A DNA stretch of 64,000 bases, taken from a virus. Under the pieces are notes generated by a model. That model ran no database searches. It was not told the origin of the DNA and saw only the letters and a list, made by a program, of their open reading frames with translations. Position 1 is the first letter of the stretch. Every line of letters begins with the position of its first letter. The translations under genes were made by a program, and so were the position numbers. The stretch covers positions 1-64,000 of the IMG/VR virus record IMGVR_UViG_3300047321_000445. One strand, 5' to 3'. This document shows, piece after piece, positions 17,861 through 43,290 of this stretch.

Positions 17861-17893
17861 GCCGTGCCGCCACCTCGACTGTGGCGGCCCGGC
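17861..17893 (+). repeat. CTCGACT-loop hairpin
   Basis: gccgtgccgccac-CTCGACT-gtggcggcccggc. Confidence 0.7.
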
Positions 17894-17919
17894 CCGAACC
17901 CCGAGAGGACCCCAGCGAC

Positions 17920-18621
17920 ATGAGCATCCCGGCCACCGAACGCAGCCCGCTCAGCGCCGAACAGCGCGACCGCCTCGCCGCTCTCCTGCCCGCCGACACC
18001 AGCTCCGCCACCGACCAGCTCCTGATGGACTTCGGCCAGGTCATCCACGACCGCCGCACCCACCAGCACCCGAAGTCGGAAGACCTCTTCTGCCACAACC
18101 TCGCGGGCTGGATGGGCGAGCGCGCGGCCTACCTGCTCCGCCGACTCGTGGACCTCGAAGAGGACAACGCCCGGCTGCGTGGCGAGTCCACCGACCTGAC
18201 CCCGATCCCCGTCCACTGGGACCGGCTCGTCATGCACCCCACCGGCGAGGACACCGACACGATCGTCTGCTGCCAGACCGAGTCCGGGCATCCCGTCGCC
18301 CTGTTCCTGAGCGAGGAATACCGCGAAGCCCTCGGCCTCCAGCTCGTCGACCCCGACCCCGACGCCGAGGCCGACGGACCCGAGTTCTTCCAGCCGGGAT
18401 GGACCTACACCCAGACCTCCAACGCATCCAGTTCGTTGCCGCCGCGCGTGACCTGGACGTTCGATGTCCGCTCGGTCGAGGAGGCGCCCGACGGCCAGCT
18501 CACCGCCCTCGGCTTCCTGCGCGGCGACCACTACGGCACCGGTGTGTGGACCCCGCACGGTGAGTACGACCTCGACGGCTGGACCGTGGTTGCCGACGAG
18601 CCGGAAGGCGACCAGGACTGA
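17920..18621 (+). CDS. hypothetical protein
   Basis: ATG after GAGAGGA RBS. Confidence 0.7.
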   Translation: MSIPATERSPLSAEQRDRLAALLPADTSSATDQLLMDFGQVIHDRRTHQHPKSEDLFCHNLAGWMGERAAYLLRRLVDLEEDNARLRGESTDLTPIPVHWDRLVMHPTGEDTDTIVCCQTESGHPVALFLSEEYREALGLQLVDPDPDAEADGPEFFQPGWTYTQTSNASSSLPPRVTWTFDVRSVEEAPDGQLTALGFLRGDHYGTGVWTPHGEYDLDGWTVVADEPEGDQD

Positions 18622-18806
18622 TGGGCGCGCTCCCCAAGTTGCTCACCCTCGGCCGCGAGCCCGAGCCGCACGAGCGCAGGCACACCGGCCGCATCGCCCT
18701 CGGCAAGGCCCGCGGCCGCGAGGACGCCGAAGAGCTGCTGGCCGCCCTCGGCATCCAGCCCACCGAATGCCGCAAGCCGGCCGAGCCCGCGCAGGAGACA
18801 TCGTGA
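18621..18806 (+). CDS. small hypothetical protein
   Basis: coupled at both ends. Confidence 0.55.
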   Translation: MGALPKLLTLGREPEPHERRHTGRIALGKARGREDAEELLAALGIQPTECRKPAEPAQETS

Positions 18807-19324
18807 CCGAGCCCGCCTACCCGACCGGCGCCTACGACTGGGACCCGGTCCCGGCCGTCAACCTCGCCGTCTACGCCCGCCCCGCGCCGAAGGGCAGCAA
18901 GGACCCCGTCGGCTTCCGGCGCGGCAAGAAGGGCCAGCAGGTCCCCATCCTCAAAGAGTCCTCCCCGTACCTCGAAGCGTGGTCGGGGGCGGTGACGCTC
19001 GCCGTGCGCAGCGCGATTGCCCGCCGCCGCGCCCGCAAGGCCCTCGGACCCGTGTACGCGCACCTCGTCTTCACGATGCCCAAGCCGAAGTCGGCGCTCA
19101 AGCGCACGCGAACCTTCCCGGACAGCTTCCCGGACATCGACAAGTTGGAGCGCGCCACCTACGACGCGATCACCAAGGCCCTGGCCTGGGAGGACGACGG
19201 CCGCGTCCTGGAGAACCACAACGTCAAGGCGTACCCGCTCGAACACCCCGACGCGCTCGACAAGCCCGGCGCCCTCATCCGCCTCTACACCCTCGCCAAG
19301 CCCGAGGAAGGAGACGACCAGTGA
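18803..19324 (+). CDS. rusA: RusA-family Holliday junction resolvase
   Basis: PAPKGSK, PDIDKLERATYDAI, WEDDGRV. Confidence 0.85.
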   Translation: MTEPAYPTGAYDWDPVPAVNLAVYARPAPKGSKDPVGFRRGKKGQQVPILKESSPYLEAWSGAVTLAVRSAIARRRARKALGPVYAHLVFTMPKPKSALKRTRTFPDSFPDIDKLERATYDAITKALAWEDDGRVLENHNVKAYPLEHPDALDKPGALIRLYTLAKPEEGDDQ

Positions 19325-19758
19325 TCCAGCTCCCCGACGACGTCCGCGCGCGCATCGAGACTCTGCTGCGCGACGGCGACGGCGACCAGAGCATCGCCCG
19401 CGAGACCGGGGTGTCCACCCGCCAGGTCCGCAACATCCGCGATGCCCTCCGCATCGCGCGCCTGCCGCGCGGCTCGCTGCCGTCCCCCTCCCTCGAAGCC
19501 CTCTTCTACAGACGGGTCGCACCCACCCCCGACGGCCACATGCTCTGGCCCGACAACCCGTCCCAGCACCGCGCCATCAGGCGAGCCGGCCGCAACTACA
19601 GCGTGAACCAGGTCGCCTTCCGCATCGGCCGAGGCCGCGAGCCCGAAGGCATGGTCCTCACCGGCTGCGACGTCCCCCGCTGCGTCCACCCCAAGCACGT
19701 CGAAGACGAGAACGACCGCGCCCTGTACCGGGCCCTCACCGGAGAAGTCGCCTCATGA
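19321..19758 (+). CDS. HTH protein with degenerate HNH-like C-terminus
   Basis: IARETGVSTRQV; CDVPRCVHPKHV. Confidence 0.65.
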   Translation: MIQLPDDVRARIETLLRDGDGDQSIARETGVSTRQVRNIRDALRIARLPRGSLPSPSLEALFYRRVAPTPDGHMLWPDNPSQHRAIRRAGRNYSVNQVAFRIGRGREPEGMVLTGCDVPRCVHPKHVEDENDRALYRALTGEVAS

Positions 19759-21440
19759 GCACGCCGACACTCGCCTACAAGACGGTCTCTCAGGAGGCCG
19801 AGGAGTACCTGCGGCTGCACCTGCGGAAGAAGACGGTCGCCCAGCAGGCCGAGGCCTTCCTGCGCCGGTCCGAGCAGGCACGCATGCGCCCCCGCCCCCG
19901 TACCTCGGGCGGCCTGCGGTGGATGGATTGGTTCTGTGGCGCAGGAGGCTCCTCCCAGGGCATCGACGCCGTGCCCGGCGCGGAAGTCACCCTCGCGGCG
20001 AACCACTGGACGTTGGCGATCGCCACGCACGCCGCGAACTTCCCCCACGCCCAGCACGAGCGCGGCGACATCCGCGACCTGCCCGTGCACAACTGGCCCG
20101 TCGCTGAAGCCTTCTGGGCCAGCCCCGAGTGCAAGAAGTGGACCCTGGCGCGCGGCAAGTCCCTCGACTACGCCTCCACGGACGTCCCGCTGCCCGGCTT
20201 TGAGCCTGAGGTCAAGGAGGAAGAGGAACGCTCCCGCGCCCTGATGTGGGACGTCCCGAAGTACCTGGAGGGCGTCCAGCGGCGCGGCAAGCTCGTCCTC
20301 GTCGGCGTCATCGAGAACGTCGTGGAAGCCCGCGGCGGCCGCGACTGGAACCGGCTGCTGCGCGACATCCACAACCTCGGCTACAAGACCAGGCTGATCG
20401 CCTTCAACTCGATGCACGCCCAGCACACCCGCACCGGCCGCCCGCCGCAGTCGAGGGACCGCCTGTACCTGGCGTACTGGCACGTCTCCCTCGGCCGTGA
20501 CCCCGACTGGGACAAGTGGCTGCGCCCCGAGGCGTACTGCCCGAAGTGCGACAAGATCGTGTCGGCGGTGCAGCGGTTCAAGAACCCGTCGAAGGACATG
20601 GGCCGCTACCGGCAGTCGTACCTGTACCGGTGCCCGTCGACCGCCTGCGGCAACACCATCGTGGAGCCCGACACACTGCCCGCCCTGTCCGTCATAGACC
20701 CGACGATCGAAGCCACGCGGATCGGGGACCGGCCGAAGTCGGAGAAGCGCCCCGAGGGTCTCTCCCCGGCGACGATGGCCCGCGTCCAGGCGGGGATCCG
20801 CGACTACTGGATGCCGCTCCTCGAGGCGGCCGCCGACGGCGACCAGGTGAACAGGGACACCCTGGCGCCGCTGATCGTGCCGTGCGAGGGACGCGAAGGG
20901 AAGAAGGTCACCAGCGGGGCCGTGCCGATTCGGGCGCAGACCACCCGCCGCGAGACCGGCATCGTCCTGCCCCCGTTCGTCATACCGATGCGCGGCGGCG
21001 GCGACAAGGAGAAAGCCCGGCTCGCCGAGACCAACCCGCTGCACACCGTCAGCGCCGGGGGCAACCACCACGGCTACATCCCCCCGCACACGCTCCTCGT
21101 GCCGTACTACGGCACCGGCAAGGCCACGACCGTCAGTCAGCCCGTCGGCGCGCTGACCACCCGCGACCGGTACGCCATCGCCGCGGTGGGCTGCACCATC
21201 GACATCGCCGACGTCCTGTTCCGCATGTTGGAGCCCGAAGAAGTCGGCCTGGCGATGGCCTTCGCCAACGACTTCCTCGTCCTCGGCGCCAAGCGCCAGC
21301 GGGTCACGCAGTACGGCAACGCCGTCACCCCGCCCATCGCCGAGCTGATCGCCAGCGCCCTCATGGAAGCCGTCACCGGCGAGGAGCTGGACCGCTACCC
21401 CGACCTTGACCCCCGGTACGCACTGGAGATGGCGGCATGA
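19755..21440 (+). CDS. orphan DNA cytosine-C5 methyltransferase
   Basis: motif I DWFCGAGG, IV WASPEC, VI IENV, VIII QSRDR, X QYGNAV. Confidence 0.92.
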   Translation: MSTPTLAYKTVSQEAEEYLRLHLRKKTVAQQAEAFLRRSEQARMRPRPRTSGGLRWMDWFCGAGGSSQGIDAVPGAEVTLAANHWTLAIATHAANFPHAQHERGDIRDLPVHNWPVAEAFWASPECKKWTLARGKSLDYASTDVPLPGFEPEVKEEEERSRALMWDVPKYLEGVQRRGKLVLVGVIENVVEARGGRDWNRLLRDIHNLGYKTRLIAFNSMHAQHTRTGRPPQSRDRLYLAYWHVSLGRDPDWDKWLRPEAYCPKCDKIVSAVQRFKNPSKDMGRYRQSYLYRCPSTACGNTIVEPDTLPALSVIDPTIEATRIGDRPKSEKRPEGLSPATMARVQAGIRDYWMPLLEAAADGDQVNRDTLAPLIVPCEGREGKKVTSGAVPIRAQTTRRETGIVLPPFVIPMRGGGDKEKARLAETNPLHTVSAGGNHHGYIPPHTLLVPYYGTGKATTVSQPVGALTTRDRYAIAAVGCTIDIADVLFRMLEPEEVGLAMAFANDFLVLGAKRQRVTQYGNAVTPPIAELIASALMEAVTGEELDRYPDLDPRYALEMAA

Positions 21441-34384: not shown

Positions 34385-34397
34385 GCCCCTGGAGTTG

Positions 34398-34434: not shown

Positions 34435-34482
34435 TCGCGTCCGGGGTCGGCTGCGCCCTGACCAGCAAGGTTTCCAGGAAGG

Positions 34483-34531
34483 GACTTGCTTTCACGTCGG
34501 GACGGGTGTACCTTAAGTCTTGTGAACGGGG
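34483..34531 (+). promoter_or_regulatory. class-B promoter/operator
   Basis: TTGCTT-tcacGTCGGGACgggtg-TACCTT-aagtcttgtgaacgggg. Confidence 0.75.
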
Positions 34532-34556
34532 CACACCGCCCCCGAAGGGAGAGACG

Positions 34557-35396
34557 ATGATCGCCCACAAGCCCACCCTCGCCACGGTCCTCGCAGTCAG
34601 GCCGGCCCAGCTCACCAGCCTCACCCCGGTCGAGATCGACCGCATGAACCTGGTCCTCTGGACAGAGGTCGACCGCCGAGAGGCCGCCGTCGACCGGGCC
34701 GAGGACCGTCTCTTCAGCGCCCTGCTGATCGACAAGGAGAGCGTCCGCCACGGGCGCGGCTGGCGCCAGGTCTGGCCGGTCAGCGTGACCGAGGCGGAGC
34801 GGCTCGCCCGCGAACACCTCGACACGGGTTACGAGATCAGCGACCGCGACAAGCTGATGCGCGGCCTGCACGGCAACCGCTACGCCGAGCAGCTGGCCGC
34901 AGCAGTCGACACGCTGGTGGCCGGCCGGGCCGCGGTGAAGGAGCTCACCGGCGGTCCCGTCGAAGTCCTGGACGACGAGTACCGCCGTCGGGGCGGCTGG
35001 TCGCGCATGCACCTCTGCCTCACTGACGGAGGCCACATCCACACCGGCCGCGAGTGCCCGAGCATCGGCCCCTCCACCCAGCTGGCATGGCTGCCCGAGG
35101 TCTCTGGCATGGACTGGCGCGAGGCGTTCGAGACGGTGATCGCCAAGAGCATGGCGGGGAGCACCCAGGTGATCATGTGCACCAAGTGCTACCGGGACGC
35201 GCCCACCGAGTGGACCGAGAAGCAGGCCGACCCCAACGAGTGCCCCATGTCCCGCAAGGACGCGTTCGAGCACATGACGCCCAAGCAGCGCCGCCTGCAC
35301 CGCAAGTACGCCACCTGCCCGGGGTGCCAGGAGGGCGTGAGCGTGACGAGCGCCTGGAAGTTCCGCAAGCACGGCAAGCCGCAGCGCGCGGTCTGA
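34557..35396 (+). CDS. phage-type hypothetical protein with Cys motifs
   Basis: GWSR....GGHIH....C.S...WLPE.SG...CTKCY.DAP. Confidence 0.8.
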   Translation: MIAHKPTLATVLAVRPAQLTSLTPVEIDRMNLVLWTEVDRREAAVDRAEDRLFSALLIDKESVRHGRGWRQVWPVSVTEAERLAREHLDTGYEISDRDKLMRGLHGNRYAEQLAAAVDTLVAGRAAVKELTGGPVEVLDDEYRRRGGWSRMHLCLTDGGHIHTGRECPSIGPSTQLAWLPEVSGMDWREAFETVIAKSMAGSTQVIMCTKCYRDAPTEWTEKQADPNECPMSRKDAFEHMTPKQRRLHRKYATCPGCQEGVSVTSAWKFRKHGKPQRAV

Positions 35397-35405
35397 CCGG
35401 CAGCT

Positions 35406-35442
35406 GGCTGGGGCCTGGCACTCGACTTGCCAGGCCCCAGCC
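35406..35442 (+). repeat. CTCGACT-loop hairpin
   Basis: ggctggggcctggca-CTCGACT-tgccaggccccagcc. Confidence 0.85.
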
Positions 35443-35479
35443 CCGGGCTCGGCCCCGGTCTGCGCGGGAGTCTTGGCGT

Positions 35480-35527
35480 CCGACTTGTTTTCACGTCGGG
35501 ACGTATGTACTCTAGGTCTTGTCAACG
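35480..35527 (+). promoter_or_regulatory. class-B promoter/operator
   Basis: TTGTTT-tcacGTCGGGACgtatg-TACTCT. Confidence 0.75.
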
Positions 35528-35551
35528 GAACACCGACCCACGGAGGACCCC

Positions 35552-35893
35552 ATGATGATCACCCTCGACCTCCCCGAGGCCCTGAGCTACGAGATCGTCT
35601 ACACGGCCGCGACGACCTGCCTGGCCAACCGTCGCTCGGGCATCTTCGAGTCCATCTCCATCCCTGCCGCCGAGAACCCCGCCGACGGCTGGAACCTGCG
35701 CCTCGTGGCCCTGAACAAGAAGGACGGCAGCACGCTCCTGGTGGACCTGCTGCGCCCCGTGGACGAGCGCTCCCCGTTCGCCGCCAGCGCCCGCGAGCGC
35801 CTGGCCGGAGGCGAGCGCCTGGCCATGCTGCTGGACCTGCTGCCCGAGCAGGCGCGCGGCGAGGTCATCCGCATCCCGCTCACCCGGGACTGA
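35552..35893 (+). CDS. hypothetical protein
   Basis: GGAGGA RBS. Confidence 0.75.
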   Translation: MMITLDLPEALSYEIVYTAATTCLANRRSGIFESISIPAAENPADGWNLRLVALNKKDGSTLLVDLLRPVDERSPFAASARERLAGGERLAMLLDLLPEQARGEVIRIPLTRD

Positions 35894-35909
35894 CCCACCC
35901 CCCCCAGCT

Positions 35910-35942
35910 CCGCCCCCGGCTACTCGACTTGGCCGGGGGCGG
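35910..35942 (+). repeat. CTCGACT-loop hairpin
   Basis: ccgcccccggcta-CTCGACT-tggccgggggcgg. Confidence 0.85.
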
Positions 35943-35973
35943 CCGCCCACCCACCCACCGGAAGGACCCCAGC

Positions 35974-36555
35974 ATGACGACCGCAGCCGCAGGCCTCGGC
36001 GGGCTCATCGCCCGCGCAGCCCCGTTCACCTCGTACCGCACGTACACGTACAACACAGACCCGAACGTCCCGGGCATCCAGGGGCTTGCCACGGTCGCCG
36101 AAGCCACGGAGCTGGTGCGCGCCCACGTGGCTGCTGACAGCCGGCTGCGCAGCACGGCGGCGACCCCCTACGGCGCGGTCATCCTGCACCAGGGCGACAC
36201 GCATATCCGGCTGGAGCCGGGCATCGACGCTCGCCCCCAGCGGCTGACCGGGCGCCAGGCCGACGACCTGCTGCTGATCGGCCGTGTTCAGGACCGGGCG
36301 AAGGTCGTGTGGGAGCCGGCCAAGGGGTGGGCGACGGTCCAGGGCGGGGTGTGGCGCATCCCCGCGGTTTCCACGGAGCGGCTGGTCAGGCGTGGATGGA
36401 TCGCCACGGAGGGCGCCGACGGGGCCCTGGTGACCGTCTCCCTGGCTGGGGTGGTCGCCCTGCAGTGGCGCTACCTCAAGGGCGAGCGGGTGTCGTCGAC
36501 TGCGCGCTGGGCGGAGGACGTGGCCGAGCATGTCGTGGACGTATTCTCCTCGTGA
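35974..36555 (+). CDS. hypothetical protein
   Basis: GAAGGA RBS. Confidence 0.75.
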   Translation: MTTAAAGLGGLIARAAPFTSYRTYTYNTDPNVPGIQGLATVAEATELVRAHVAADSRLRSTAATPYGAVILHQGDTHIRLEPGIDARPQRLTGRQADDLLLIGRVQDRAKVVWEPAKGWATVQGGVWRIPAVSTERLVRRGWIATEGADGALVTVSLAGVVALQWRYLKGERVSSTARWAEDVAEHVVDVFSS

Positions 36556-36556
36556 C

Positions 36557-36607
36557 CCGACTTGCTTTAACGTCGGGACGCCTGTACCTTAGGTCTTGTG
36601 AACGGGG
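36557..36607 (+). promoter_or_regulatory. class-B promoter/operator
   Basis: TTGCTT-taacGTCGGGACgcctg-TACCTT. Confidence 0.75.
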
Positions 36608-36638
36608 CACACCGCCCCGACCGACCGAGGAGGACCCC

Positions 36639-37157
36639 ATGGCCATCACCACCGCGACCGCCACCGGCCAGGCCGAAGCCGACCGCCTGCGCGCCTCGGC
36701 CCGCCAGCACGAAGCGGACGTGATCGAGTCCCGCGACCGCTGCGACACCGACGGCTTCCTCTCCCAGTGGGCGTCCGGCCGCATGGCCGGCCTGGACTAC
36801 CTCGCGGCCGAGATCGCCGAGGCGGGCGGCAAGTGGGACTTCGGCGGCCTCTTCGACCTGGAGGGCAACCTGGTCCCGGCCATCCGGCTCCAGAACCGCT
36901 ACGACGGCTGGTCCTGGAAGCTCCTGGACGAGCGCGGCCGGTGCGCTGGCTGGTTCAACGAGTCCAAGGCCAAGACCGAGGAGCGGCGCGTGGCCGCCCA
37001 CGCCAAGCAGGGCTTCTACGTCGGCCGCGTCCGCGTCCCGGCCAAGGCCGAGATGCAGGGCGGCAACTACTTCTCGGTGCGGGCGGTCCCGGTCCGCCTG
37101 GACGAGGGCTGGGACCCGGAGGCCGAGATCCTCGACAACGGCCAGCCCACGGCCTGA
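36639..37157 (+). CDS. phage-type hypothetical protein
   Basis: S.DRCDTDGFLSQWA motif; GAGGAGG RBS. Confidence 0.8.
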   Translation: MAITTATATGQAEADRLRASARQHEADVIESRDRCDTDGFLSQWASGRMAGLDYLAAEIAEAGGKWDFGGLFDLEGNLVPAIRLQNRYDGWSWKLLDERGRCAGWFNESKAKTEERRVAAHAKQGFYVGRVRVPAKAEMQGGNYFSVRAVPVRLDEGWDPEAEILDNGQPTA

Positions 37158-37170
37158 CACCCCGCCCCTT

Positions 37171-37207
37171 GGCTGCGCCCGGCCACTCGACTTGGCCGGG
37201 CGTGGCC
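37171..37207 (+). repeat. CTCGACT-loop hairpin
   Basis: ggctgcgcccggcca-CTCGACT-tggccgggcgtggcc. Confidence 0.85.
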
Positions 37208-37239
37208 GCCCCCGCCACAAGCCCCAGGAGTAGAGCCCC

Positions 37240-37554
37240 ATGAGCAACCCGCCCACCTCCATCGCCGACCAGCGGCAGGCCTGGAAGAGACTTCGCCCCG
37301 AGGCTCTCGCCCAGCTCGCCACGACCATGAACGCCGCCGAGATAGCCGACGCCTTCGGCGTGGCCCGCCCGGCCGTGGAGCAGCGTCTCGCGTACCACGG
37401 TCTCGTCGCCTGCGTCGGTGGCCCCACGCCCCGCCGCAAGCTCGTCCACAACCGGCTCATCCACTGCCCCGCCACCACGACGCTCGGCACCGTCTGCGGC
37501 GCGCCCCAGGAGCCTGACGGCACCTGCCGGTGGGCCCACCAGCACACGGCCTGA
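37240..37554 (+). CDS. small HTH protein
   Basis: MNAAEIADAFGVARPAV. Confidence 0.7.
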   Translation: MSNPPTSIADQRQAWKRLRPEALAQLATTMNAAEIADAFGVARPAVEQRLAYHGLVACVGGPTPRRKLVHNRLIHCPATTTLGTVCGAPQEPDGTCRWAHQHTA

Positions 37555-37567
37555 CACCCCCCTCCCT

Positions 37568-37604
37568 GGTTGCGCCCGGCCACTCGACTTGGCCGGGCGC
37601 AGCC
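37568..37604 (+). repeat. CTCGACT-loop hairpin
   Basis: ggttgcgcccggcca-CTCGACT-tggccgggcgcagcc. Confidence 0.85.
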
Positions 37605-37651
37605 GCCCCGCTCATCCATCCCCGCTCCATCACCCTCCCGAGGAGAGATCC

Positions 37652-37942
37652 ATGGACACCACCGCTGCATCCACGGCCGGCGCCGAGGACACCCGCCGCG
37701 ACTGGGCCATCGTCGCCATCACCTCCCAGTCCATCCACTGCGCCGACAGGCAGGCCGCCGAGGAGGTGGCTGAAGACCGCCCGCACCTCACGGTCGTCTC
37801 GCGGCCGCTCGGGGGCGAGTGGGAGCCGCTGTCGCAGCCGGTCGTCCCGGTCGACCTGGGGCCGCTGAGCGACGAGCAGCTGGCGGCGCTCCAGTTCGAG
37901 GCCGCGCGGCTGTTGGCGCGCCGTCAGGGCCGCGCGCTGTAG
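37652..37942 (+). CDS. hypothetical protein
   Basis: GAGGAG RBS. Confidence 0.7.
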   Translation: MDTTAASTAGAEDTRRDWAIVAITSQSIHCADRQAAEEVAEDRPHLTVVSRPLGGEWEPLSQPVVPVDLGPLSDEQLAALQFEAARLLARRQGRAL

Positions 37943-38038
37943 TTCCTGCTGAGTCCTGCTGCGCCCCGGTCGACATGGCCGGGGCGCAGTCGCGTTCGGG
38001 GGTGGGCTGTGCCCTGACCAGCGGGTTTTCACCCCTAG

Positions 38039-38086
38039 GCTTGCATGCACGTCGGGACACGTGTACTCTAGGTCTTGTGAACGGGG
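38039..38086 (+). promoter_or_regulatory. class-B promoter/operator
   Basis: TTGCAT-gcacGTCGGGACacgtg-TACTCT. Confidence 0.75.
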
Positions 38087-38115
38087 CAACGCCCCACCCG
38101 ACCGAGGAGGACCCC

Positions 38116-38376
38116 ATGGACACCATCGCCGCCGACAACCTGACCGGCACCTACTACCCCGCCGCCCCCGGCGCCCGCACCTGGCGCGAGGCCCGCCCCC
38201 TCTACATCGGCCGCGACCGCGTCTCGGCCGAGATCACGGCCGACCGCCAGGGCTACGTCTTCGTCGGCCTGCACATGGTCTTCGCCGGGGCCATCCCCGC
38301 CGACGTCCAGGGCAGCGCCGACGTGACCCGCTGGGCCCGCGAGGTGGCCCTGTCCACGCTCACGCTCGCCGCCTGA
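38116..38376 (+). CDS. hypothetical protein
   Basis: GAGGAGG RBS. Confidence 0.75.
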   Translation: MDTIAADNLTGTYYPAAPGARTWREARPLYIGRDRVSAEITADRQGYVFVGLHMVFAGAIPADVQGSADVTRWAREVALSTLTLAA

Positions 38377-38390
38377 CCCACCATCCGCCC

Positions 38391-38427
38391 GCCGCGCCCC
38401 GGCCGCTCGACTAGCCCGGGGCGCGGC
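38391..38427 (+). repeat. CTCGACT-loop hairpin
   Basis: gccgcgccccggccg-CTCGACT-agcccggggcgcggc. Confidence 0.8.
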
Positions 38428-38448
38428 ACCCACCCCGAGAGGAACCCC

Positions 38449-38970
38449 ATGGCCATCGCAGACCTGAAGCTGCTGCCCGCCGTCGCCTTCGACCGCCCCA
38501 CCCAGGACGGCATGAAGCCGCTCCCCGAGGGCTACGACCCGAGCCGGCTGACGATCGTCCGCGCCGACCAGGTGCGCACTGGGGACCTGGTCGTCGGCAG
38601 CGTCGACCAGCCCCTGAAGCGCGGCAGCCTGCTCCGCTGGGCGACGTACCTGGCGGCCGCGTACGTCGCGCAGCCGGGCCCGTACGAGGCCGACTGCGCG
38701 TCCTGCCGGGCCTGGACGTCCACGCCCGTGCCGGATGCCGAGTGGGTGTCCCTGGCCCCGCACGTCCCGCAGCTCGCGGACGAGCTGATCTCCATCGTCC
38801 CGGCGCCCGAGCCGGTGGAGGCCGCACCGCGGCCGTGCGTGCACACCTGCACCTGCGAGAACGGCCGCCTGCGGCAGACGACCCGCAGCTTCTACCCGGC
38901 CGCCATCTGCGGCGACTGTCACCGCCGTCCGTGCGGCGCCTGCCGTGACGCGGCCCGCTCGACCCACTGA
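38449..38970 (+). CDS. Cys-rich hypothetical protein
   Basis: GAGGA RBS; several CxxC. Confidence 0.7.
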   Translation: MAIADLKLLPAVAFDRPTQDGMKPLPEGYDPSRLTIVRADQVRTGDLVVGSVDQPLKRGSLLRWATYLAAAYVAQPGPYEADCASCRAWTSTPVPDAEWVSLAPHVPQLADELISIVPAPEPVEAAPRPCVHTCTCENGRLRQTTRSFYPAAICGDCHRRPCGACRDAARSTH

Positions 38971-38982
38971 TCCCACCTCACG

Positions 38983-39019
38983 GCTGCGCCCCGGCCACTC
39001 GACTTGGCCGGGGCGCAGC
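38983..39019 (+). repeat. CTCGACT-loop hairpin
   Basis: gctgcgccccggcca-CTCGACT-tggccggggcgcagc. Confidence 0.85.
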
Positions 39020-39039
39020 ACCCACACCGAGAGGACACC

Positions 39040-39615
39040 ATGCCCACCTTCACCTTCCCCAGCGGCGCGACCGTCGAGGCGCCCGACGGACTGCCCCTGT
39101 GTGAGCGGCCCGAGACCGTCACGGAGGACGTCGGCCGTTCCATCCTGGTCGGCCTGACCCGCAGCGACCGACCGGTCTTCTCCACCTTCTCCTGTGCCGC
39201 TTACGCCGCCCTCGGTCGCCTGTTCACCATGCGGGGGGACGTTGCCTACGACCGCCGTCGGGCCGAGCGGCTGGAGGCCCGCGGCCGGACCTGGCAGGCG
39301 GGGAACGTGCGCCGCCATGCCGACGAGCGGGAGGCGCGCAACGAACGGCTCCTGGCGCGCATGGTGGCCGACCCGGCGCCGTGCACGTGCGTGATCCCTT
39401 ACGTGCCCGCTGTCGAGCTGGCTGAAGAGGTCGGGGTTCTCAAGGCTGACGTCCTGGAGAAGATCCGCGATCGTGCCGACCGGATGAGGGCGCTCGGGGG
39501 GCGGGACGTGGAGCAGCTCGTTTTCCGCCTGGGCCCCGACGGTGAGGTGCTGGTGGCGCCGATTACGGCTCTGTCGCTGCGGATGCACTTCGCCCAGCCT
39601 GCGCACCTGCGCTGA
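39040..39615 (+). CDS. hypothetical protein
   Basis: GAGGA RBS. Confidence 0.7.
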   Translation: MPTFTFPSGATVEAPDGLPLCERPETVTEDVGRSILVGLTRSDRPVFSTFSCAAYAALGRLFTMRGDVAYDRRRAERLEARGRTWQAGNVRRHADEREARNERLLARMVADPAPCTCVIPYVPAVELAEEVGVLKADVLEKIRDRADRMRALGGRDVEQLVFRLGPDGEVLVAPITALSLRMHFAQPAHLR

Positions 39616-39636
39616 CGCCTGACCCCGGACGCAATA

Positions 39637-39675
39637 CGGCCGTCTGCTGCTTCTCGACTAAGCGGCAGACGGCCG
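39637..39675 (+). repeat. CTCGACT-loop hairpin with an unrelated stem sequence
   Basis: cggccgtctgctgctt-CTCGACT-aagcggcagacggccg. Confidence 0.85.
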
Positions 39676-39717
39676 GCCCCCACCGTAGCAAGACTGAACC
39701 CCCGGAAGGAACCGTTC

Positions 39718-40362
39718 ATGAGCACGACTACGCCCGCCAGACCGGACGTGCCCGCTCTCGCCCACGAGACCGCGCGCATCCTCGGCACTGACTGGCACGC
39801 CCAGCCGGACACGGACTGGGTCAGCGCCTGGGCGCTGCACCACCGGGACGGGCGCCGCGTCCGCCTGTACGGCCCGGAGTACGGCAACGAGGGCCGGCTG
39901 TACATGGAGGGACTGCTGCCGAACGCGCCCGAGGACGAGCGGCCGGACCGGACCGGCCTGGACTCCGGGAACATCTCCGTCGCTGCGTCCTCCCCGGCCC
40001 GCCGTGTGGCCGGGGAGATCACCCGGCGCCTGCTGCCCAAGCTGACCCCGGCGTGCGAGGAGTACCGCCGTCGGCTGGAGGAGCTGCGTACGGCGGAGCG
40101 AGCCCGCGTGGCGGCTGCCCGCAGCCTGGCGGAACTGCCGGGCCTGTCGGAGCCGCGCCGGAACTACCACGACCGGAGGGTGACGGCGTATCACCTGGCC
40201 TGGGACGGGCCGAGGCGCGGCGAGTGGCACGGGGCGAAGCCGTCCGCGCGGATCGACGTGGACGCAGACCGGGAGACGGCTGAGCCGCACGTGTGCATGG
40301 AGCTGCGGGGGCTGTCGCCCGAGCAGGCCGAGCGGGTGCTGCGGGCGCTCATCGAGCCGTAG
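39718..40362 (+). CDS. hypothetical protein
   Basis: GAAGGA RBS. Confidence 0.75.
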   Translation: MSTTTPARPDVPALAHETARILGTDWHAQPDTDWVSAWALHHRDGRRVRLYGPEYGNEGRLYMEGLLPNAPEDERPDRTGLDSGNISVAASSPARRVAGEITRRLLPKLTPACEEYRRRLEELRTAERARVAAARSLAELPGLSEPRRNYHDRRVTAYHLAWDGPRRGEWHGAKPSARIDVDADRETAEPHVCMELRGLSPEQAERVLRALIEP

Positions 40363-40422
40363 GTCTGAGCGTCGTGGGTGTGCCCCGGCCGGGTTGGTCG
40401 GGGCACACCCATATCTGCCTCA

Positions 40423-40474
40423 CGTCCCGACTTGCTTTCACGTCGGGACTCATGCATGCTTGGTCTTGCGAACG
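40423..40474 (+). promoter_or_regulatory. class-B promoter/operator, full inverted repeat
   Basis: GTCCCGAC-ttgctttcac-GTCGGGAC; TTGCTT-N17-CATGCT. Confidence 0.75.
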
Positions 40475-40501
40475 ACACCAGCGACCAGGGATCGGAGATC
40501 C

Positions 40502-41206
40502 ATGCCTCACGCACGCGCTCAGCTCATCGGCGGCCGCGACCGCCAGTGCGACGCCACCGCCGTCTACACGAAGCACAACAAGGTCCGCGCCTACGTCCTC
40601 CTGGACGGCATCGGCGACACCACCGACGTCCACCTCTGGACCCTGCTCACCGCCCGCCGCCTGGCCTACCAGGCGGCAAACGACGCCGACGCCGAGGCCG
40701 GACTGCGCACAGTCCACGCCCGGATCGCCGAGGAGCGCGCCCCGCTCGGCTTGGCCGCAGACTTCGAGCCGTCCGCGGTTGCCGTCGTCGCGGTCGCCAT
40801 CCCCGGCGAGCTGCTCCAGGTCGCATGGTGCGGCGACGCCCGCGCCTACGTCCTGCCCGAAGGCGGCGAGTTGCGGCGGCTGACGACCGACCACAACAAG
40901 CGCCAGTGGCTGATCGACCAGGACCTCCCGTTCGGCCCGTACGACCGTAACCAGGTCCTCTCGTACCTCGGCGACACCGCCGAGGACGCGTCGCAGCGGA
41001 TCGGGACGGCACTCGGTCCCGCCTCGGGCCGCCTGCTGCTGGCCTCGGACGGCGCGTACGAGCCCCTGGAGGACTCGTGCATGGACCTGTCGGCCTACCT
41101 CGTGGGAAGCCCGCGTAAGGCCGCCAGGGACTTCACGCAGGCCGCCATCGACCGCGGCTCGGCCCGCCCGGACAACGCCACGGCCCTGGTCGTCGACTTC
41201 GGCTGA
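40502..41206 (+). CDS. PP2C/PPM-family Ser/Thr phosphatase
   Basis: QCDA, LLDGIG, WCGDARAY, LTTDH, LLLASDG, DNAT. Confidence 0.85.
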   Translation: MPHARAQLIGGRDRQCDATAVYTKHNKVRAYVLLDGIGDTTDVHLWTLLTARRLAYQAANDADAEAGLRTVHARIAEERAPLGLAADFEPSAVAVVAVAIPGELLQVAWCGDARAYVLPEGGELRRLTTDHNKRQWLIDQDLPFGPYDRNQVLSYLGDTAEDASQRIGTALGPASGRLLLASDGAYEPLEDSCMDLSAYLVGSPRKAARDFTQAAIDRGSARPDNATALVVDFG

Positions 41207-41220
41207 TCCCCGCTCACCGT

Positions 41221-41251
41221 CCGCCCCGGCTACTCGACTTGGCCGGGGCGG
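41221..41251 (+). repeat. CTCGACT-loop hairpin
   Basis: ccgccccggcta-CTCGACT-tggccggggcgg. Confidence 0.85.
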
Positions 41252-41289
41252 GCCGCCTCTTCCCACCACACCCACTTGAACGGAGAACC

Positions 41290-41859
41290 ATGGACGCTCA
41301 CGAGTCCCGCAACTTCCTGGCCGGCCTGGCCAAGAGACTCCCCGCCGAGGTCACCGTCGAAGACCGCGAAGGGCCGGTCACCCGCGAGGCACTGCTGCGG
41401 GTCATCCGTAACGACCTGCTGCCGGTCCTGGTCCGCAACCCGCTGCACCGCCACCCGCGCAGGCAGCTCCCCGCCCTCTACGGCCCGGTCGCGGCCGGCC
41501 TGCGTCAGGCCCTGGTCGCCTACAGCTCGGGCCGTGGAGAGGACTTCCTGCCCCGGCTGGAGCAGGCTCTCGAGGCCGCGGCGGCCGCCCGCAAGGCGGA
41601 CGACTACGACCCCGCCACGAAGTACGTGACCGCGACGTCCTGGGCAGTCTCGTGCACCCTGGGCGCGCACATCGACGGCGCGATCCTCAACGTCCACGAC
41701 CTGGACCACGAGGCGGTCAACGGCCACGGCGGCTGGGGCGTGGTCGTCTGGCACCCGGTCCACGACAAGCGGCAGTTCCCCAGCCAGGACGCAGCTCGCG
41801 CCTACGCCCTGCGGATGGGGCTGCTGCAGCGCTTCGTGCCGAGCCGCGTGCTGGTCTGA
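41290..41859 (+). CDS. hypothetical protein
   Basis: GGAG RBS. Confidence 0.7.
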   Translation: MDAHESRNFLAGLAKRLPAEVTVEDREGPVTREALLRVIRNDLLPVLVRNPLHRHPRRQLPALYGPVAAGLRQALVAYSSGRGEDFLPRLEQALEAAAAARKADDYDPATKYVTATSWAVSCTLGAHIDGAILNVHDLDHEAVNGHGGWGVVVWHPVHDKRQFPSQDAARAYALRMGLLQRFVPSRVLV

Positions 41860-41868
41860 CGGTCCCTC

Positions 41869-41905
41869 GCTGCGCCCCGGTCACTCGACTTGACCGGGGC
41901 GCAGC
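41869..41905 (+). repeat. CTCGACT-loop hairpin
   Basis: gctgcgccccggtca-CTCGACT-tgaccggggcgcagc. Confidence 0.85.
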
Positions 41906-41951
41906 CGTGTTCGGGGACGGGCAGGCAGCACTCTCCATCTTTCTTGGGGAA

Positions 41952-42002
41952 CCGACTTGCTTTCACGTCGGGACACGTGCATACTAGGTCTTGCGAACGG
42001 GG
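41952..42002 (+). promoter_or_regulatory. class-B promoter/operator
   Basis: TTGCTT-tcacGTCGGGACacgtg-CATACT. Confidence 0.75.
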
Positions 42003-42041
42003 AACGGAAAGTCCGGCCCCACCAACACCGAGGAGCACACC

Positions 42042-42719
42042 ATGGCTAAGACCCCCGCCTACACGATCACCACCACCGACGACACCAAGGTGGACGAGCG
42101 GACCGAGGGCAAGGCGGCCGACAAGCTGGCCCAGAAGCTCACCGCCGAGACCGGCCTGGTCCACCGGGTCTACACCCCGACCGGCAAGCTCCGCCTGGAG
42201 ACCGAGGTCGTCGAGCCGGCCCCGGCCGATGAGGTCCCCTCGGTCGACATCAGCGAGGTCCCCGAGGCCGCGCCGGTCGAGGCCGAGGCCGAGGCGGAGG
42301 TCGAGGAGGTCGTGGAGGCCGAGGTCGAGGCCGAGGAGGTCGAGGAGGCCCCCGAGACGGCCCCGGTCGAGGTCCGCGAGATGAACATCGTGGTGCCCAG
42401 GGACTTCGTCTCCTACGCGACGCTGATGGACCTGCTCAAGAACGACGACGACGCGGTCCGCGAGGACGCCGCGTCCGAGTGGGCCTTCCGCCTGGAGGTC
42501 TACAAGCGGCGCACGAACGCCAAGGACGCCTCGAAGCGGATCGTCGGCCCGGCCATGGCGGCGGCGCTGGAGCGCGGCGAGACCACCGACGGGCGGACCA
42601 TCGCCTCCCTGGCCAAGCGGGGCCTGGTGGAGCGCGGGGAGGGTCTGGCCTTCACGGTGAACGAGGCCGGGCGCGCGGCCCTGGCCGCTGCGGTCGCCGC
42701 GGTGACCGACACCGAGTGA
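42042..42719 (+). CDS. hypothetical protein (paralog of 28429..29034) with acidic linker
   Basis: MAKTPAYTITT...; EAEVEE repeats. Confidence 0.85.
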   Translation: MAKTPAYTITTTDDTKVDERTEGKAADKLAQKLTAETGLVHRVYTPTGKLRLETEVVEPAPADEVPSVDISEVPEAAPVEAEAEAEVEEVVEAEVEAEEVEEAPETAPVEVREMNIVVPRDFVSYATLMDLLKNDDDAVREDAASEWAFRLEVYKRRTNAKDASKRIVGPAMAAALERGETTDGRTIASLAKRGLVERGEGLAFTVNEAGRAALAAAVAAVTDTE

Positions 42720-42730
42720 TCGTCCCTGAG

Positions 42731-42767
42731 GTTGCGCCCCGGCCACTCGACTTGGCCGGGGCGCGAC
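42731..42767 (+). repeat. CTCGACT-loop hairpin
   Basis: gttgcgccccggcca-CTCGACT-tggccggggcgcgac. Confidence 0.85.
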
Positions 42768-42778
42768 TGCTTCCCTGG

Positions 42779-42822
42779 CCGACTTGCTTTCACGTCGGGA
42801 CGTGTGTACTCTAAGTCTTGTG
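42779..42822 (+). promoter_or_regulatory. class-B promoter/operator
   Basis: TTGCTT-tcacGTCGGGACgtgtg-TACTCT. Confidence 0.75.
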
Positions 42823-42864
42823 AGGGACCGGAACGACCGGCCCACCAACCACCAGGAGGACGCC

Positions 42865-43242
42865 ATGACCGCCACCGCCACCGAGACCCTGGCCCCCGGC
42901 ACCGTCGTGCGCGCCCCCCTCTACCGCAACGGCCAGCCCGTCGGCCGACCCCGCCGCGGCATCGTCCTGCGCACCTTCGCCAGCGACGGCAACCCCAAGT
43001 CCGGCTACCTCGTGTGGTTCTACACGCTCGGGGCGGCCCACAAGGACGGCCAGGGCGACACCAGCACGGTCGGCCTGGTCTTCCCGCGCGAGGCCGAGCG
43101 CGTCGGCACCGTCGCCGACATGGGCGACCGGGTGCTGGCCAACGCCGGTAAGGGCCTGCGCGACTGGCCCACCGGCCGCCAGGCCTGGAACGAGATCTAC
43201 CGCGTCTACGTCGCCCGGAAGCGCGCGGCCGCGCAGGCCTGA
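42865..43242 (+). CDS. hypothetical protein
   Basis: AGGAGG RBS. Confidence 0.75.
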   Translation: MTATATETLAPGTVVRAPLYRNGQPVGRPRRGIVLRTFASDGNPKSGYLVWFYTLGAAHKDGQGDTSTVGLVFPREAERVGTVADMGDRVLANAGKGLRDWPTGRQAWNEIYRVYVARKRAAAQA

Positions 43243-43253
43243 CGGCCCCCCTC

Positions 43254-43290
43254 GCCGGGCCCCGGCCACTCGACTTGGCCGGGGCCCGGC
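43254..43290 (+). repeat. CTCGACT-loop hairpin
   Basis: gccgggccccggcca-CTCGACT-tggccggggcccggc. Confidence 0.85.

Follow-up and report, generated by a model that had tools for sequence, protein, structure and literature searches.

What would keep a single 7-nt loop constant behind gene after gene, on stems that differ from copy to copy, is the question raised by this locus. The window (the whole 64-kb stretch that was analysed) is the first part of a 97,310-bp element from a rhizosphere metagenome, a Streptomyces temperate phage or phage-plasmid. All 19 hairpins listed in the preliminary description are present, each a GC-rich stem capped by the 7-nt loop CTCGACT. The window contains 30 occurrences of the heptamer where 10.6 would be expected, and none of 100 shuffles reaches 30. 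Among the 363 listings of hairpins with stems of at least 9 bp in the 97-kb genome, no other loop is nearly as frequent (16 sense and 11 antisense); other terminator-like hairpins of the same genome have unrelated loops. The stem length, given earlier as 10-16 bp, holds in part: 16 copies have 8-16 contiguous pairs, but the three with loops at 32353, 32912 and 38406 are imperfect, with a mismatch at or near loop closure. Predicted RNA stabilities range from -25 to -39 kcal/mol (z -3.2 to -7.2), and no copy has a canonical U-tract, as originally stated. The features are listed below, with family hairpins denoted H1, the associated promoter P1 and model scores in bits.

17858-17896 (+): H1 hairpin between two replication-module genes, loop CTCGACT at 17874-17880, then RBS and ATG; 44.7 bits
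23164-23198 (+): H1 hairpin, 14-bp stem, 9 nt past the stop codon, RBS and start next; 46.7 bits
28383-28413 (-): H1 hairpin at the end of the leftward operon, convergent gene beyond; 47.9 bits
28386-29189 (-): inverted paralogous cassette (hairpin, promoter, gene, hairpin), 75% identical to 41864-42761 (+)
29146-29184 (-): H1 hairpin, 16-bp stem, P1 promoter 29101-29118 (-) about 28 nt later; 53.5 bits
29555-29591 (-): H1 hairpin, 15-bp stem, intercistronic, RBS GAGAGGA and ATG next; 55.8 bits, -34.4 kcal/mol
31646-31678 (+): H1 hairpin, 5 nt past the stop codon, P1 promoter about 13 nt later; 48.8 bits
32340-32372 (+): H1 hairpin, closing pair mismatched, intercistronic; 48.5 bits
32896-32934 (+): imperfect H1 hairpin in the 5' leader of the DUF3560 gene, after a P1-like promoter; 33.8 bits, -25.5 kcal/mol
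34397-34435 (-): inverted-loop copy, CTCGACC on the - strand, both neighbouring genes on +, with an orthologous inverted copy in S. cavernae; 36.4 bits (- strand)
35406-35442 (+): H1 hairpin, variant stem GGCTGGGGCCTGGCA, P1 promoter next; 51.0 bits
35910-35942 (+): H1 hairpin, intercistronic; 53.1 bits
37170-37208 (+): H1 hairpin, 16 pairs including G.U, intercistronic; 53.0 bits
37567-37605 (+): H1 hairpin, intercistronic; 58.1 bits
37958-37990 (+): degenerate relative with family stem GCTGCGCCCCGG, loop lost, P1 promoter next; 27.3 bits
38391-38427 (+): H1 hairpin, intercistronic, RBS about 9 nt past the stem; 45.8 bits
38983-39019 (+): H1 hairpin, perfect 15-bp stem, intercistronic; 56.9 bits, -36.8 kcal/mol
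39637-39675 (+): H1 hairpin, non-consensus stem CGGCCGTCTGCTGCTT, same loop (CTCGACC in the S. cavernae ortholog); 45.5 bits, -32.5 kcal/mol
40374-40412 (+): degenerate relative, 18-bp stem, loop GGT, P1 promoter next; 23.1 bits (best on the - strand)
41219-41253 (+): H1 hairpin, intercistronic; 55.4 bits
41869-41905 (+): H1 hairpin, T-containing tail, then P1 promoter; 54.6 bits
42730-42768 (+): H1 hairpin, P1 promoter about 16 nt later; 54.6 bits
43254-43290 (+): H1 hairpin, best model score, intercistronic; 60.3 bits, -39.2 kcal/mol
29101-42801 (both strands): promoter/operator P1 TTGYTTTCACGTCSGGAC, dyad ACGTC-GG-GACGT, 11 copies (11 matches against 0.16 expected), first bases 29101(-), 31256(-), 31694, 32863, 34486, 35485, 36562, 38041, 40432, 41957 and 42784

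The same hairpin family, with loop CTCGACY, is carried by three sister IMG/VR phages of 98-99 kb, by a syntenic element of Streptomyces cavernae and by a linear plasmid of Streptomyces sp. NBC_00708. Proteins shared among the six carrier elements, the present one included, are 25-87% identical, and the loop is still CTCGAC. In the S. cavernae genome, 16 of 17 model matches fall inside one element. Among 400 sampled Streptomyces genomes there was no hairpin cluster, the exception being S. cavernae, on which the search was centred, and the Rfam models, including tRNA, gave no match to the hairpins at E values up to 1. Within these searches the family is absent from Rfam and is not a repeat common on Streptomyces chromosomes, which leaves the initial interpretation unrefuted on that score; it is confined to mobile elements.

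The placement of the loop is strand-specific. As first described, it follows the gene strand on both sides of the divergence point: the copies at 28395, 29162 and 29570 read on the (-) strand, those from 31659 through 43269 on the (+) strand. A CTCGACT hairpin outside the window, at 95437-95475 (-) between the two co-oriented genes of an operon, likewise tracks its genes. In five elements, 72 of 86 copies are co-oriented with the upstream gene and lie no more than 30 nt 3' of its stop codon, which agrees with the earlier statement that most copies closely follow a stop codon. Behind about 13 of the window copies there is nothing but an RBS and start codon, with no promoter between, and the copy said to sit directly after a -10 element is indeed the imperfect hairpin adjoining the P1-like promoter at 32863-32880. 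The array's final gene (43325-43846) lacks a hairpin of this kind. The inverted variant is also real: at 34397-34435 the (+) strand loop, CGGTCGAGT, is the motif inverted. Each of the five elements has exactly one copy whose loop is inverted relative to the neighbouring genes, at non-orthologous places in at least two groups, and a purely sense-RNA model leaves this copy unexplained.

The stems change by compensation. When 31 copies of two elements were aligned, double changes were seen at 15 of the 16 pairs and 89% of cells paired; the covariation score was 0.672 compared with 0.185 in shuffles (0 of 500 reached 0.672) and only 0.10-0.15 when the partners were slid as a control. Stems differ widely between copies, and those with unique stems are perfectly paired. 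The stem is nevertheless not free to vary, contrary to what its initial description implied, since it keeps a consensus core, CCCCGG with complement CCGGGG; the stem at 39637 does lie outside this consensus and retains the loop, as reported. Within the same 31 copies TCGAC is invariant, and 57 of the 58 copies aligned across four elements have CTCGAC[CT]. The loop of one S. cavernae copy is TTCGACC. In nine of 11 orthologous pairs with S. cavernae, loop base 7 is the only loop difference, T here and C there, and it is C in all outgroups. This C-to-T change includes the copy at 39653, whose stem lacks the family consensus, and that at 17874, whose stem also departs from it. Stem bases adjoining the loop vary among copies of one genome, and the loop beside them is constant; together with the base-7 switch, this probably implies that something reads the loop. 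The proposal of a structured signal is thus borne out by an invariant loop, co-varying stems and a strand that follows the genes, and these support a strand-specific signal with its loop under selection.

The explanation we prefer, and hold tentatively at slightly less than an even chance, is that of an RNA-level gene-end hairpin acting as a leaky terminator and 3'-end protector, its loop being read by a putative factor. Transcription of a cistron would produce a very stable RNA hairpin of 12-16 bp, 3-21 nt past the stop codon. Lacking a U-tract, it would stop RNA polymerase only inefficiently inside operons, where the RBS and next gene directly follow, and so would attenuate transcription while setting and protecting the 3' end of the upstream message. 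Termination might be more complete at hairpins whose tail is richer in T and which precede a new promoter under repressor control. The 8-nt tail contains 2.2 T before a promoter compared with 0.53 before an RBS (p = 1.6e-4). Efficient termination inside operons appears unlikely because so many copies lead straight into an RBS and start codon, one lies within the operon at 95.4 kb, no U-tract is present and the tails there are poor in T.

The 7-nt loop would be recognised sequence-specifically by a factor acting in trans, the likeliest kind being an RNA-binding protein encoded by the element or its host; this factor would set or tune the outcome, be it termination or antitermination, processing or stability. 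Lambda nut boxB with N, the MS2 and PP7 coat-protein hairpins and Cas6 repeats offer models of a protein that reads a loop rather than the stem sequence; they differ in loop size and sequence, and nut boxB occurs at one or two sites per genome whereas the hairpins here follow nearly every gene. We found no N-like, coat-like or Cas6-like protein, and no candidate reader. The DUF3560 protein is the only one common to all carriers; it also occurs in plasmids with a different hairpin, and its confident structural model matched no solved fold.

A rather unlikely alternative is that these are ordinary U-less Streptomyces terminators or insulators without a loop reader, whose repeated homology lets general recombination shuffle ORFan cassettes, the uniform loop reflecting recent shared ancestry and mutual homogenisation of the copies. 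In actinomycetes, hairpin 3' ends lacking a U-tract ('I-shaped') occur, and early terminators without poly-U have reportedly been described in phage phiC31. Such terminators are likewise GC-rich hairpins soon after a stop codon, without a U-tract, in the early region of a Streptomyces phage, and expected to be leaky; they are, however, individual hairpins with no common loop. The repeated palindromes detected in phiC31 are centred on ACGT (CCTACTC-ACGT-GAGTAGG); these are symmetric, operator-like sites and differ from the CTCGACT hairpin. Termination by hairpins without a U-tract is itself uncertain, because mycobacterial RNA polymerase requires one in vitro (PMC3993855).

The recombinational side of this alternative, which the preferred reading shares as a by-product, has a precedent in the promoter-early stem-loop (PeSL) cassettes of T4-type phages (Arbiol et al. 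2010, PMC2839356; Comeau et al. 2014, PMC4122927). PeSLs too are repeated composites, in which a stable stem-loop between genes is combined with a strong promoter of host type; they cluster where small ORFan genes make up a hyperplastic region, and gains, losses, replacements and rearrangements among related phages have their breakpoints at the motifs. Termination by the stem-loops was demonstrated, as was recombination at them, in one case within the loop itself (PMC2839356). The window has the same composite terminator and promoter layout in an ORFan region, where no array ORF has a Pfam family except DUF3560, PP2C and DUF6409. Its largest internal repeat is bounded by hairpins, the homology between 28386-29189 and 41864-42761 stopping at them; duplication and inversion there are cassette-sized. 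Cassette order differs from that in S. cavernae, and blocks of homology between the two stop no more than about 30 nt from a hairpin or about 60 nt from a promoter. Additionally, the element encodes SSB and RusA, and the genome-wide T versus C at loop base 7 resembles concerted evolution.

The likeness to PeSLs is one of analogy, not homology, since phage lineage and sequence are unrelated. Hairpin and promoter are separable here, two thirds of the hairpins standing alone between co-transcribed genes; the family is paired with two promoter/operator types in different elements, and the promoter bears a repressor-type dyad. PolyG/polyC stems are described for PeSLs, with loop conservation unmentioned in the available part of that account (PMC2839356), whereas here the loop is the invariant part. 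More directly against U-less terminators, CTCGAC is kept across the six elements and adjoining stem bases differ within a genome; homogenisation by conversion is disfavoured because conversion tracts would not stop at the loop. Gene conversion is also unlikely because the non-consensus-stem copies at 39653 and 17874 made the same C-to-T change. Selection on structure alone predicts that the loop should be the fastest-evolving part, and the loops of other terminator-like hairpins in this genome are unrelated to that of H1.

It is quite improbable that the hairpin is a DNA-level site, either a tyrosine-recombinase crossover with inverted arms and an asymmetric 7-bp core or an attC-like or HUH-nickase hairpin, in an array permitting site-specific excision, insertion and inversion of cassettes. 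A gene and site moving together as a DNA cassette would give the same orientation relative to genes, and the one-directional array of gene plus 3' site is integron-like, with cassette-wise variation. Strand exchange requires an identical asymmetric core, which every copy has; homology with relatives usually crosses the hairpin and breaks at its 3' end; an inverted cassette is present, as is the one inverted site per element; and a tyrosine recombinase is encoded at 906-1907. The sense strand has 24 G.U pairs and 18 A.C mismatches, the latter reading as G.U when the strands are swapped; a G.U excess is the classical sign of an RNA structure, and here it is not significant, so these counts may be compatible with DNA-level or two-strand selection and to that extent weigh against the preferred RNA reading. 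However, the carriers share no recombinase or HUH protein, and no homolog of the window recombinase turned up in the searched S. cavernae region, in G002, in G405 or in G406. A recombinase would bind the arms, but these vary and at 39637 are wholly different, and exchange within the loop between different stems would leave the arms mismatched, yet most cells pair and unique stems are perfect. Integron attC sites show the opposite pattern, keeping the stem base and extrahelical bases and varying the loop; here, moreover, no integron integrase lies beside the array and many cassettes own a promoter. Two copies in the replication module and the one in the two-gene operon are not in arrays at all.

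The stoperators reportedly found in cluster A mycobacteriophages and R4-like Streptomyces phages are similar in that a short, asymmetric motif recurs two to three dozen times in short intergenic gaps, within operons and in one orientation relative to transcription. They are 13-bp double-stranded repressor sites without a dyad, whereas here just 6-7 nt are fixed and the flanks must pair with each other, which an operator in duplex DNA does not need.

Finally, it is very improbable that the loop is an RNA-RNA or mimicry signal, forming kissing complexes (CUCG presumably conforms to YUNR, the U-turn motif found in recognition loops of antisense RNAs, and a transcribed inverted copy, of which each of five elements has one, would pair over 7 nt with all other loops) or imitating a tRNA loop as a decoy or processing signal (it is one base from the T-loop TTCGACT seen in Streptomyces tRNA T-arms among the search matches, the S. 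cavernae variant is TTCGACC, the tRNA-Ser(CGA) anticodon loop starts with CUCGA, and stems of at least 12 bp resemble a tRNA minihelix), since the case is one of resemblance, with co-expression and accessibility of the inverted copy presumed, the tRNA model gives no match, the T-loop-defining U54 and G53-C61 closing pair are absent, and anticodon-loop position 37 would be a pyrimidine.

Under the preferred reading of a leaky, loop-read gene end, the hairpins would be that half of each standard cassette boundary which closes a gene, in the variable region of ORFan accessory genes. Their repetition, and that of the promoters, could secondarily provide joints for cassette duplication, inversion and exchange between relatives. 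The hairpins and the repeated repressor-type P1 promoter are the two halves of composite promoter/terminator boundaries. The cassettes bounded in this way are ORFan genes shuffled between relatives, much like PeSL modules, and the hairpin family itself is common to a small clade of phages and plasmids.

The heptanucleotide CTCGACT occurs 30 times in the window, against 10.6 expected, and is by far the commonest loop among the strong hairpins of the whole 97-kb genome. At every position listed in a preliminary description made from the sequence, it was indeed the loop of a GC-rich hairpin. These hairpins, hereafter H1, have stems of 10-16 bp with a predicted RNA stability of -25 to -39 kcal/mol, and they are intergenic, the base of the stem lying 3-21 nt past the stop codon of the upstream gene. 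As had also been proposed, the loop follows the gene strand, reading on the minus strand in the three copies of a leftward operon (28.4-29.6 kb) and on the plus strand in copies among rightward genes. One further copy was found outside the window.

95437-95475 (17437-17475 of L002, a later part of this genome), minus strand, H1 hairpin between two co-oriented genes

This copy splits a two-gene operon that a first-stage note had called hicAB-like, and whose ORFs the gene caller merged; if it terminated efficiently, the two genes would be uncoupled.

When 31 copies of this element and Streptomyces cavernae were aligned without gaps, 89% of cells were paired and 15 of 16 pairs had changed on both sides, giving a covariation score of 0.672 as compared with 0.185 for shuffles and 0.10-0.15 for slid partners. 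The compensated stem changes noted in the preliminary description are thus borne out. Its picture of variable stems needs correcting: although the stem at 39637 is unrelated to the consensus, the stems are not arbitrary, having a core of CCCCGG with its complement CCGGGG from which several copies deviate. The stem bases flanking the loop vary within a genome (CCA/TGG, CCG/CGG, TCA/TGA, CTT/AAG, GCA/TGC and CAC/GTG), and TCGAC was invariant throughout the alignment. A covariance model found 20 copies on the sense strand at 44-60 bits, apart from the imperfect one among them at 32912, which had 33.8 bits. It gave the inverted copy at 34395-34437 a score of 36 bits on the minus strand, and lower scores to two degenerate relatives (37955 and 40374).

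The window is the first 64 kb of a single 97,310-bp contig, classed as a virus, with a GC content of about 70%; the runs listed as containing it are rhizosphere metagenomes of DNA type, with no RNA run among them. Its late region encodes a large terminase, a portal-MuF fusion and further large proteins; a replication and recombination block at 15-27 kb encodes RusA, SSB, WhiB and a DNA methyltransferase; and ParA-like ATPases, a tyrosine recombinase and an FtsK/TraB-like protein are also present. Because of its terminase, portal-MuF, replication, ParA-like, recombinase and FtsK/TraB-like genes, the element is, judged by gene content, a temperate Streptomyces-type phage or phage-plasmid. Searches of phage and plasmid collections, among them a megablast of 28-44 kb, gave no close relatives. 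Apart from DUF3560, PP2C and DUF6409, the ORFs of the hairpin-bearing array belong to no Pfam family, and they are common to relatives only in part. The array is closed by a GntR/UTRA regulator (43925-44674, minus strand), followed by a radical-SAM protein and a methyltransferase (45261-47395, plus strand); no H1 hairpin lies between the last array gene (43325-43846) and the convergent GntR gene. At the extreme left end of the contig (window 9-47) is a 16-bp GC hairpin with the loop TTGTCCT, and the left and right ends of the contig do not form an inverted repeat.

Pattern and covariance-model searches identified five further elements carrying H1.

Further elements carrying H1 hairpins
S. cavernae SYSU K10008, scaffold 9, 30-kb stretch at about 281-312 kb (L040): about 20 copies
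IMGVR_UViG_2934965791_000001 (G002), provirus of 99,284 bp: 16 model matches
IMGVR_UViG_3300010218_000004 (G405), complete with direct terminal repeats, 97,787 bp: 7-10 copies
IMGVR_UViG_3300046499_000591 (G406), 98,216 bp: 15-17 copies
Streptomyces sp. NBC_00708 linear plasmid CP108999.1, 155,135 bp: 4 copies in the 20 kb fetched

The S. cavernae stretch is syntenic with 15.6-43.3 kb of this element at 70-80% nucleotide identity, and the four phage-sized records form one family, as judged by the structural and replication genes that they have in common. Three more IMG/VR contigs had one strong copy each. The relatives carry CTCGACC as their loop, with CTCGACT or TTCGACC as rare variants, and a more distant contig has a hairpin with a CTCAACC loop. 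A stringent pattern gave 21 matches in the species-representative genome collection, about the number expected by chance (about 30 by our own rough estimate), and a looser one gave only background in 400 Streptomyces genomes except in S. cavernae, on which the search was centred. Within the 10.4-Mb S. cavernae genome, 16 of the 17 model matches among the best 150 candidates scored fell in one 15-kb stretch of the element; the hundreds of copies over the host chromosome typical of REP/BIME-type repeats were not found. Rfam returned no match at E values up to 1 for region 15000-48000. With no Rfam match and only background on chromosomes, H1 is therefore not a known family common on Streptomyces chromosomes, the outcome that the preliminary description had named as contradicting it, and our search of the literature on the motif and on conserved-loop hairpins of Streptomyces phages found nothing relevant. 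H1 is a real, strongly non-random and uncatalogued hairpin family.

In five elements, 72 of 86 copies are co-oriented with a gene ending no more than 30 nt upstream, and most of the others reflect rough gene calls. About 13 hairpins in the window have nothing but an A/C-rich spacer before the RBS and start codon of the next gene, with no promoter; five have a promoter 13-51 nt downstream, one stands at the end of an operon and one lies directly after a promoter, in a 5' leader. A repeated promoter/operator, P1, makes up the other half of the cassette boundaries. This 18-nt motif, TTGYTTTCACGTCSGGAC, has 11 copies against 0.16 expected, and contains a dyad, ACGTC-GG-GACGT, flanked by a -35-like TTGYTT and a -10-like TAnnnT. 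It is found 13-86 nt downstream of five true hairpins, the inverted copy and the two degenerate copies.

P1 promoter/operator sites, by first base (span 29101-42801)
29101, minus strand
31256, minus strand
31694
32863
34486
35485
36562
38041
40432
41957
42784

The P1 repeats have the look of a single-repressor regulon covering the ORFan array, and their GTTTTCACGT part resembles what we take to be a half parS site. In G002, G405, G406 and the NBC_00708 plasmid the same hairpin is paired with another promoter/operator, TTGCGTGTAGCTACA; since one hairpin goes with different promoter/operators, hairpin type and repressor type assort independently. Two intergenic hairpins of the leftward operon are of a different kind, being made of the operator half-site CCCGTCCCGACT ... 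GGTCGGGACGGG and having 8-nt A/T-rich loops.

29962-29993, minus strand, operator-half-site hairpin
30472-30507, minus strand, operator-half-site hairpin

One of them has a T-rich tail and is the sole non-H1 terminator-like match near the array.

Do the H1 hairpins act as terminators? They share with canonical intrinsic terminators a GC-rich hairpin shortly after a gene, and lack the U-tract of about 7-9 nt directly after the stem: a hairpin-plus-T-run scan found a canonical tract in no copy, in agreement with the preliminary description. The tails nevertheless differ according to what comes next, with a mean of 2.2 T in the first 8 nt where a promoter follows (at least 10 nt away) versus 0.53 where an RBS follows (Mann-Whitney p = 1.6e-4). 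Tails and positions fit a graded design, with little termination within operons and more at operon ends.

The hairpins also coincide with the joints of rearrangement. The largest repeat in the region pairs 28386-29189 (minus strand) with 41864-42761 (plus strand) at 75% identity over 901 aligned positions; each copy, of about 800-900 nt, comprises a hairpin, a promoter, a gene and a hairpin, and homology ends at the hairpins. Against S. cavernae, cassette order and orientation have changed, and homology blocks typically pass through a hairpin and end at its 3' end, others beginning just past a hairpin or promoter, with HSP ends at most about 30 nt away from a hairpin or about 60 nt away from a promoter. 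This arrangement recalls the promoter-early stem-loop (PeSL) cassettes of T4-type phages, described as strong promoters plus stem-loop terminators in hyperplastic ORFan regions, and as mediating modular shuffling (PMC2839356, PMC4122927). Like PeSL, P1 and H1 join a repeated host-type promoter to an intergenic stem-loop, the array occupies a hyperplastic ORFan region, and indels, replacements and rearrangements between relatives break at the motifs; unlike PeSL, about 13 of the hairpins stand without a promoter. By analogy, the reading that fits best is that a small clade of Streptomyces phages and plasmids has PeSL-like cassette boundaries, of which H1 forms the terminator or 3'-end half. What H1 has in addition is an invariant and apparently co-evolving loop.

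That the hairpins are oriented with transcription and keep a constant position past stop codons favours RNA, over DNA, as the active form. However, a cassette-linked DNA site would have the same orientation, and G.U pairs on the sense strand (24) show no clear excess over A.C mismatches (18). Among DNA readings, a site for a recombinase has the right geometry, in that inverted arms flank an asymmetric 7-bp core as in lox, FRT or dif. Yet the carriers have no recombinase in common; the arms vary between copies, completely so at 39637, and so do not behave as the conserved arms bound by a cognate recombinase at such sites; and exchange within the loop between unlike copies would leave mismatched arms, of which none were seen. 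For stoperators of the L5/R4 type, which are asymmetric double-stranded repressor sites, the orientation and intergenic location of H1 fit, whereas covarying flanks are not one of their properties. Integron attC sites need an adjacent IntI, whereas the only tyrosine recombinase of the window is 27 kb off and has no homologue in other carriers, and they have conserved R''/R' boxes at the base of the stem, extrahelical bases and a variable loop, in contrast to the variable outer stem and invariant loop of H1. The T-arm of tRNA has a 7-nt loop (U54-U55-C56-R57-A58) closed by the pair G53-C61. A T-arm or minihelix mimic does not fit, as the H1 loop starts with C in 85 of 86 copies and its closing pair is mostly A-U or a mismatch. 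The ssDNA promoters of conjugative leading regions were rejected on two grounds, the stems being too short for -35 plus -10 boxes and the element having an FtsK-like TraB, a type of protein that transfers double-stranded DNA; the repeated palindromes of phiC31 are centred on ACGT and are of another kind; and a bidirectional origin does not account for the strand switch, since the copies at 17874, 23178 and 95.4 kb track gene direction rather than distance from 31.3 kb.

In each of five elements, one copy and no more has its loop in the opposite orientation to the genes beside it.

Loop-inverted copies
34397-34435, this window
12595-12637 of L040, the S. cavernae stretch
87913-87959, G002
17133-17169, G405
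74034-74082, G406

The copy in the window is orthologous to that of S. cavernae, and those of G002, G405 and G406 are placed elsewhere. In each element, the transcript of the inverted copy would have a loop complementary to all the others.

If structure alone were under selection, no part would be expected to drift as fast as the loop. Yet 57 of 58 aligned copies, and 85 of 86 in a wider set, have kept CTCGAC, among carriers whose shared proteins are 25-87% identical. Because the loop is fixed while the stem bases beside it vary within one genome, it appears to need a reader. At loop base 7, this element has T in 20 of its 21 copies, and C stands there in 13 of the 17 S. cavernae copies, 15 of the 16 G002 copies and all four on the plasmid; this is the sole loop difference in 9 of 11 orthologous pairs with S. 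cavernae, including 39653, whose stem offers no family homology for gene conversion, and 17874, whose stem is likewise off consensus. From this pattern of substitution we infer that selection has been directional, exerted by a reader that is not the same in this element and in that of S. cavernae, or in their hosts.

We know of no such loop reader for Streptomyces phages or plasmids. Only four proteins are common to this element, S. cavernae, G002, G405 and G406: a 205-aa protein, RusA, SSB and a DUF3560 protein. The 205-aa protein, found in the phages and S. cavernae and resembling DUF7340/7341 clusters only, was rejected as the reader because no plasmid record has a homologue, including the hairpin-bearing NBC_00708 plasmid. 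The DUF3560 protein was likewise rejected. It occurs widely in Streptomyces elements, among them plasmids that have a different hairpin type; its confident structural model (pLDDT 85), a long helical bundle with small beta domains, matches no solved fold, and a sequence search of the PDB gave no match. In many linear Streptomyces plasmids a DUF3560 gene is found no more than a few kb from an end; some of these genes are fused to very large proteins (a 4.6-kb ORF in NZ_CP108601) or carry a ParB-like annotation. When 60 proteins were scanned against PHROG and Pfam, no RNA-binding, antiterminator, Cas6-like, HUH or shared recombinase family came up. A host factor is a possible reader.

We also examined the hairpin types around DUF3560 genes in six plasmid records. 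Three MobF plasmids, pZL1 (NC_023316.1) and those of S. xanthii (NZ_CP061283.1) and S. griseorubiginosus (NZ_CP107769.1), have similar ORFan arrays, in which each gene is preceded by a hairpin with a conserved loop, ATGGCA, between GG and CC, then a conserved CTCGAAAC leader and an RBS; the same hairpin-leader unit also occurs directly after promoters. CTCGAAA is found 16, 10 and 17 times on the gene strand of these plasmids and never on the other. S. phaeochromogenes NZ_CP108590.1 has ATGGCA(G)-loop hairpins with different stems and a different leader. The ATGGCA arrays adjoin MobF relaxase, ArdC, DndC and HNH genes. In our window, a small gene (48793-49068) lies between two hairpins of a separate kind, which have the stem GGCCCCGCACCCC and the loop ATGCAGG in common, and a similar stem recurs at genome 75735-77, past a gene ending at 75726.

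48652-48684, first hairpin of the ATGCAGG pair
49087-49123, second hairpin of the ATGCAGG pair

Since the ATGGCA loops constitute a second family, Streptomyces mobile elements may use hairpins with a fixed loop more generally. Two loop codes have been seen, CUCGAY here and AUGGCA with the CUCGAAAC leader in pZL1-type MobF plasmids. A bolder idea, which we consider improbable, is that each lineage of Streptomyces phages, phage-plasmids and conjugative plasmids has 'punctuation' hairpins of its own, with invariant loops that address dedicated RNA- or ssDNA-binding factors, the reader co-evolving with the loop (C to U at base 7 here) and the one antisense copy per element serving as partner or regulator. 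If true, it would add a new post-transcriptional or cassette-handling layer of control to the accessory and anti-defence gene arrays of actinomycete mobile elements.

Read as PeSL-like, H1 takes the concept of promoter/terminator cassettes that act as joints in modular shuffling beyond the T4-type phages and into actinomycete elements. Over about 90 copies, from six mobile elements or more, the stems turn over and the 7-nt loop stays constant, which clearly bears the mark of a specific molecular reader. With two carriers in culture (S. cavernae SYSU K10008 and Streptomyces sp. NBC_00708), the question of that reader is directly testable. A fixed-loop hairpin could serve Streptomyces synthetic biology as a compact orthogonal insulator, stabiliser or protein-addressable tag, and discovery of the reader would account for the expression, insulation and exchange of large arrays of orphan accessory genes.
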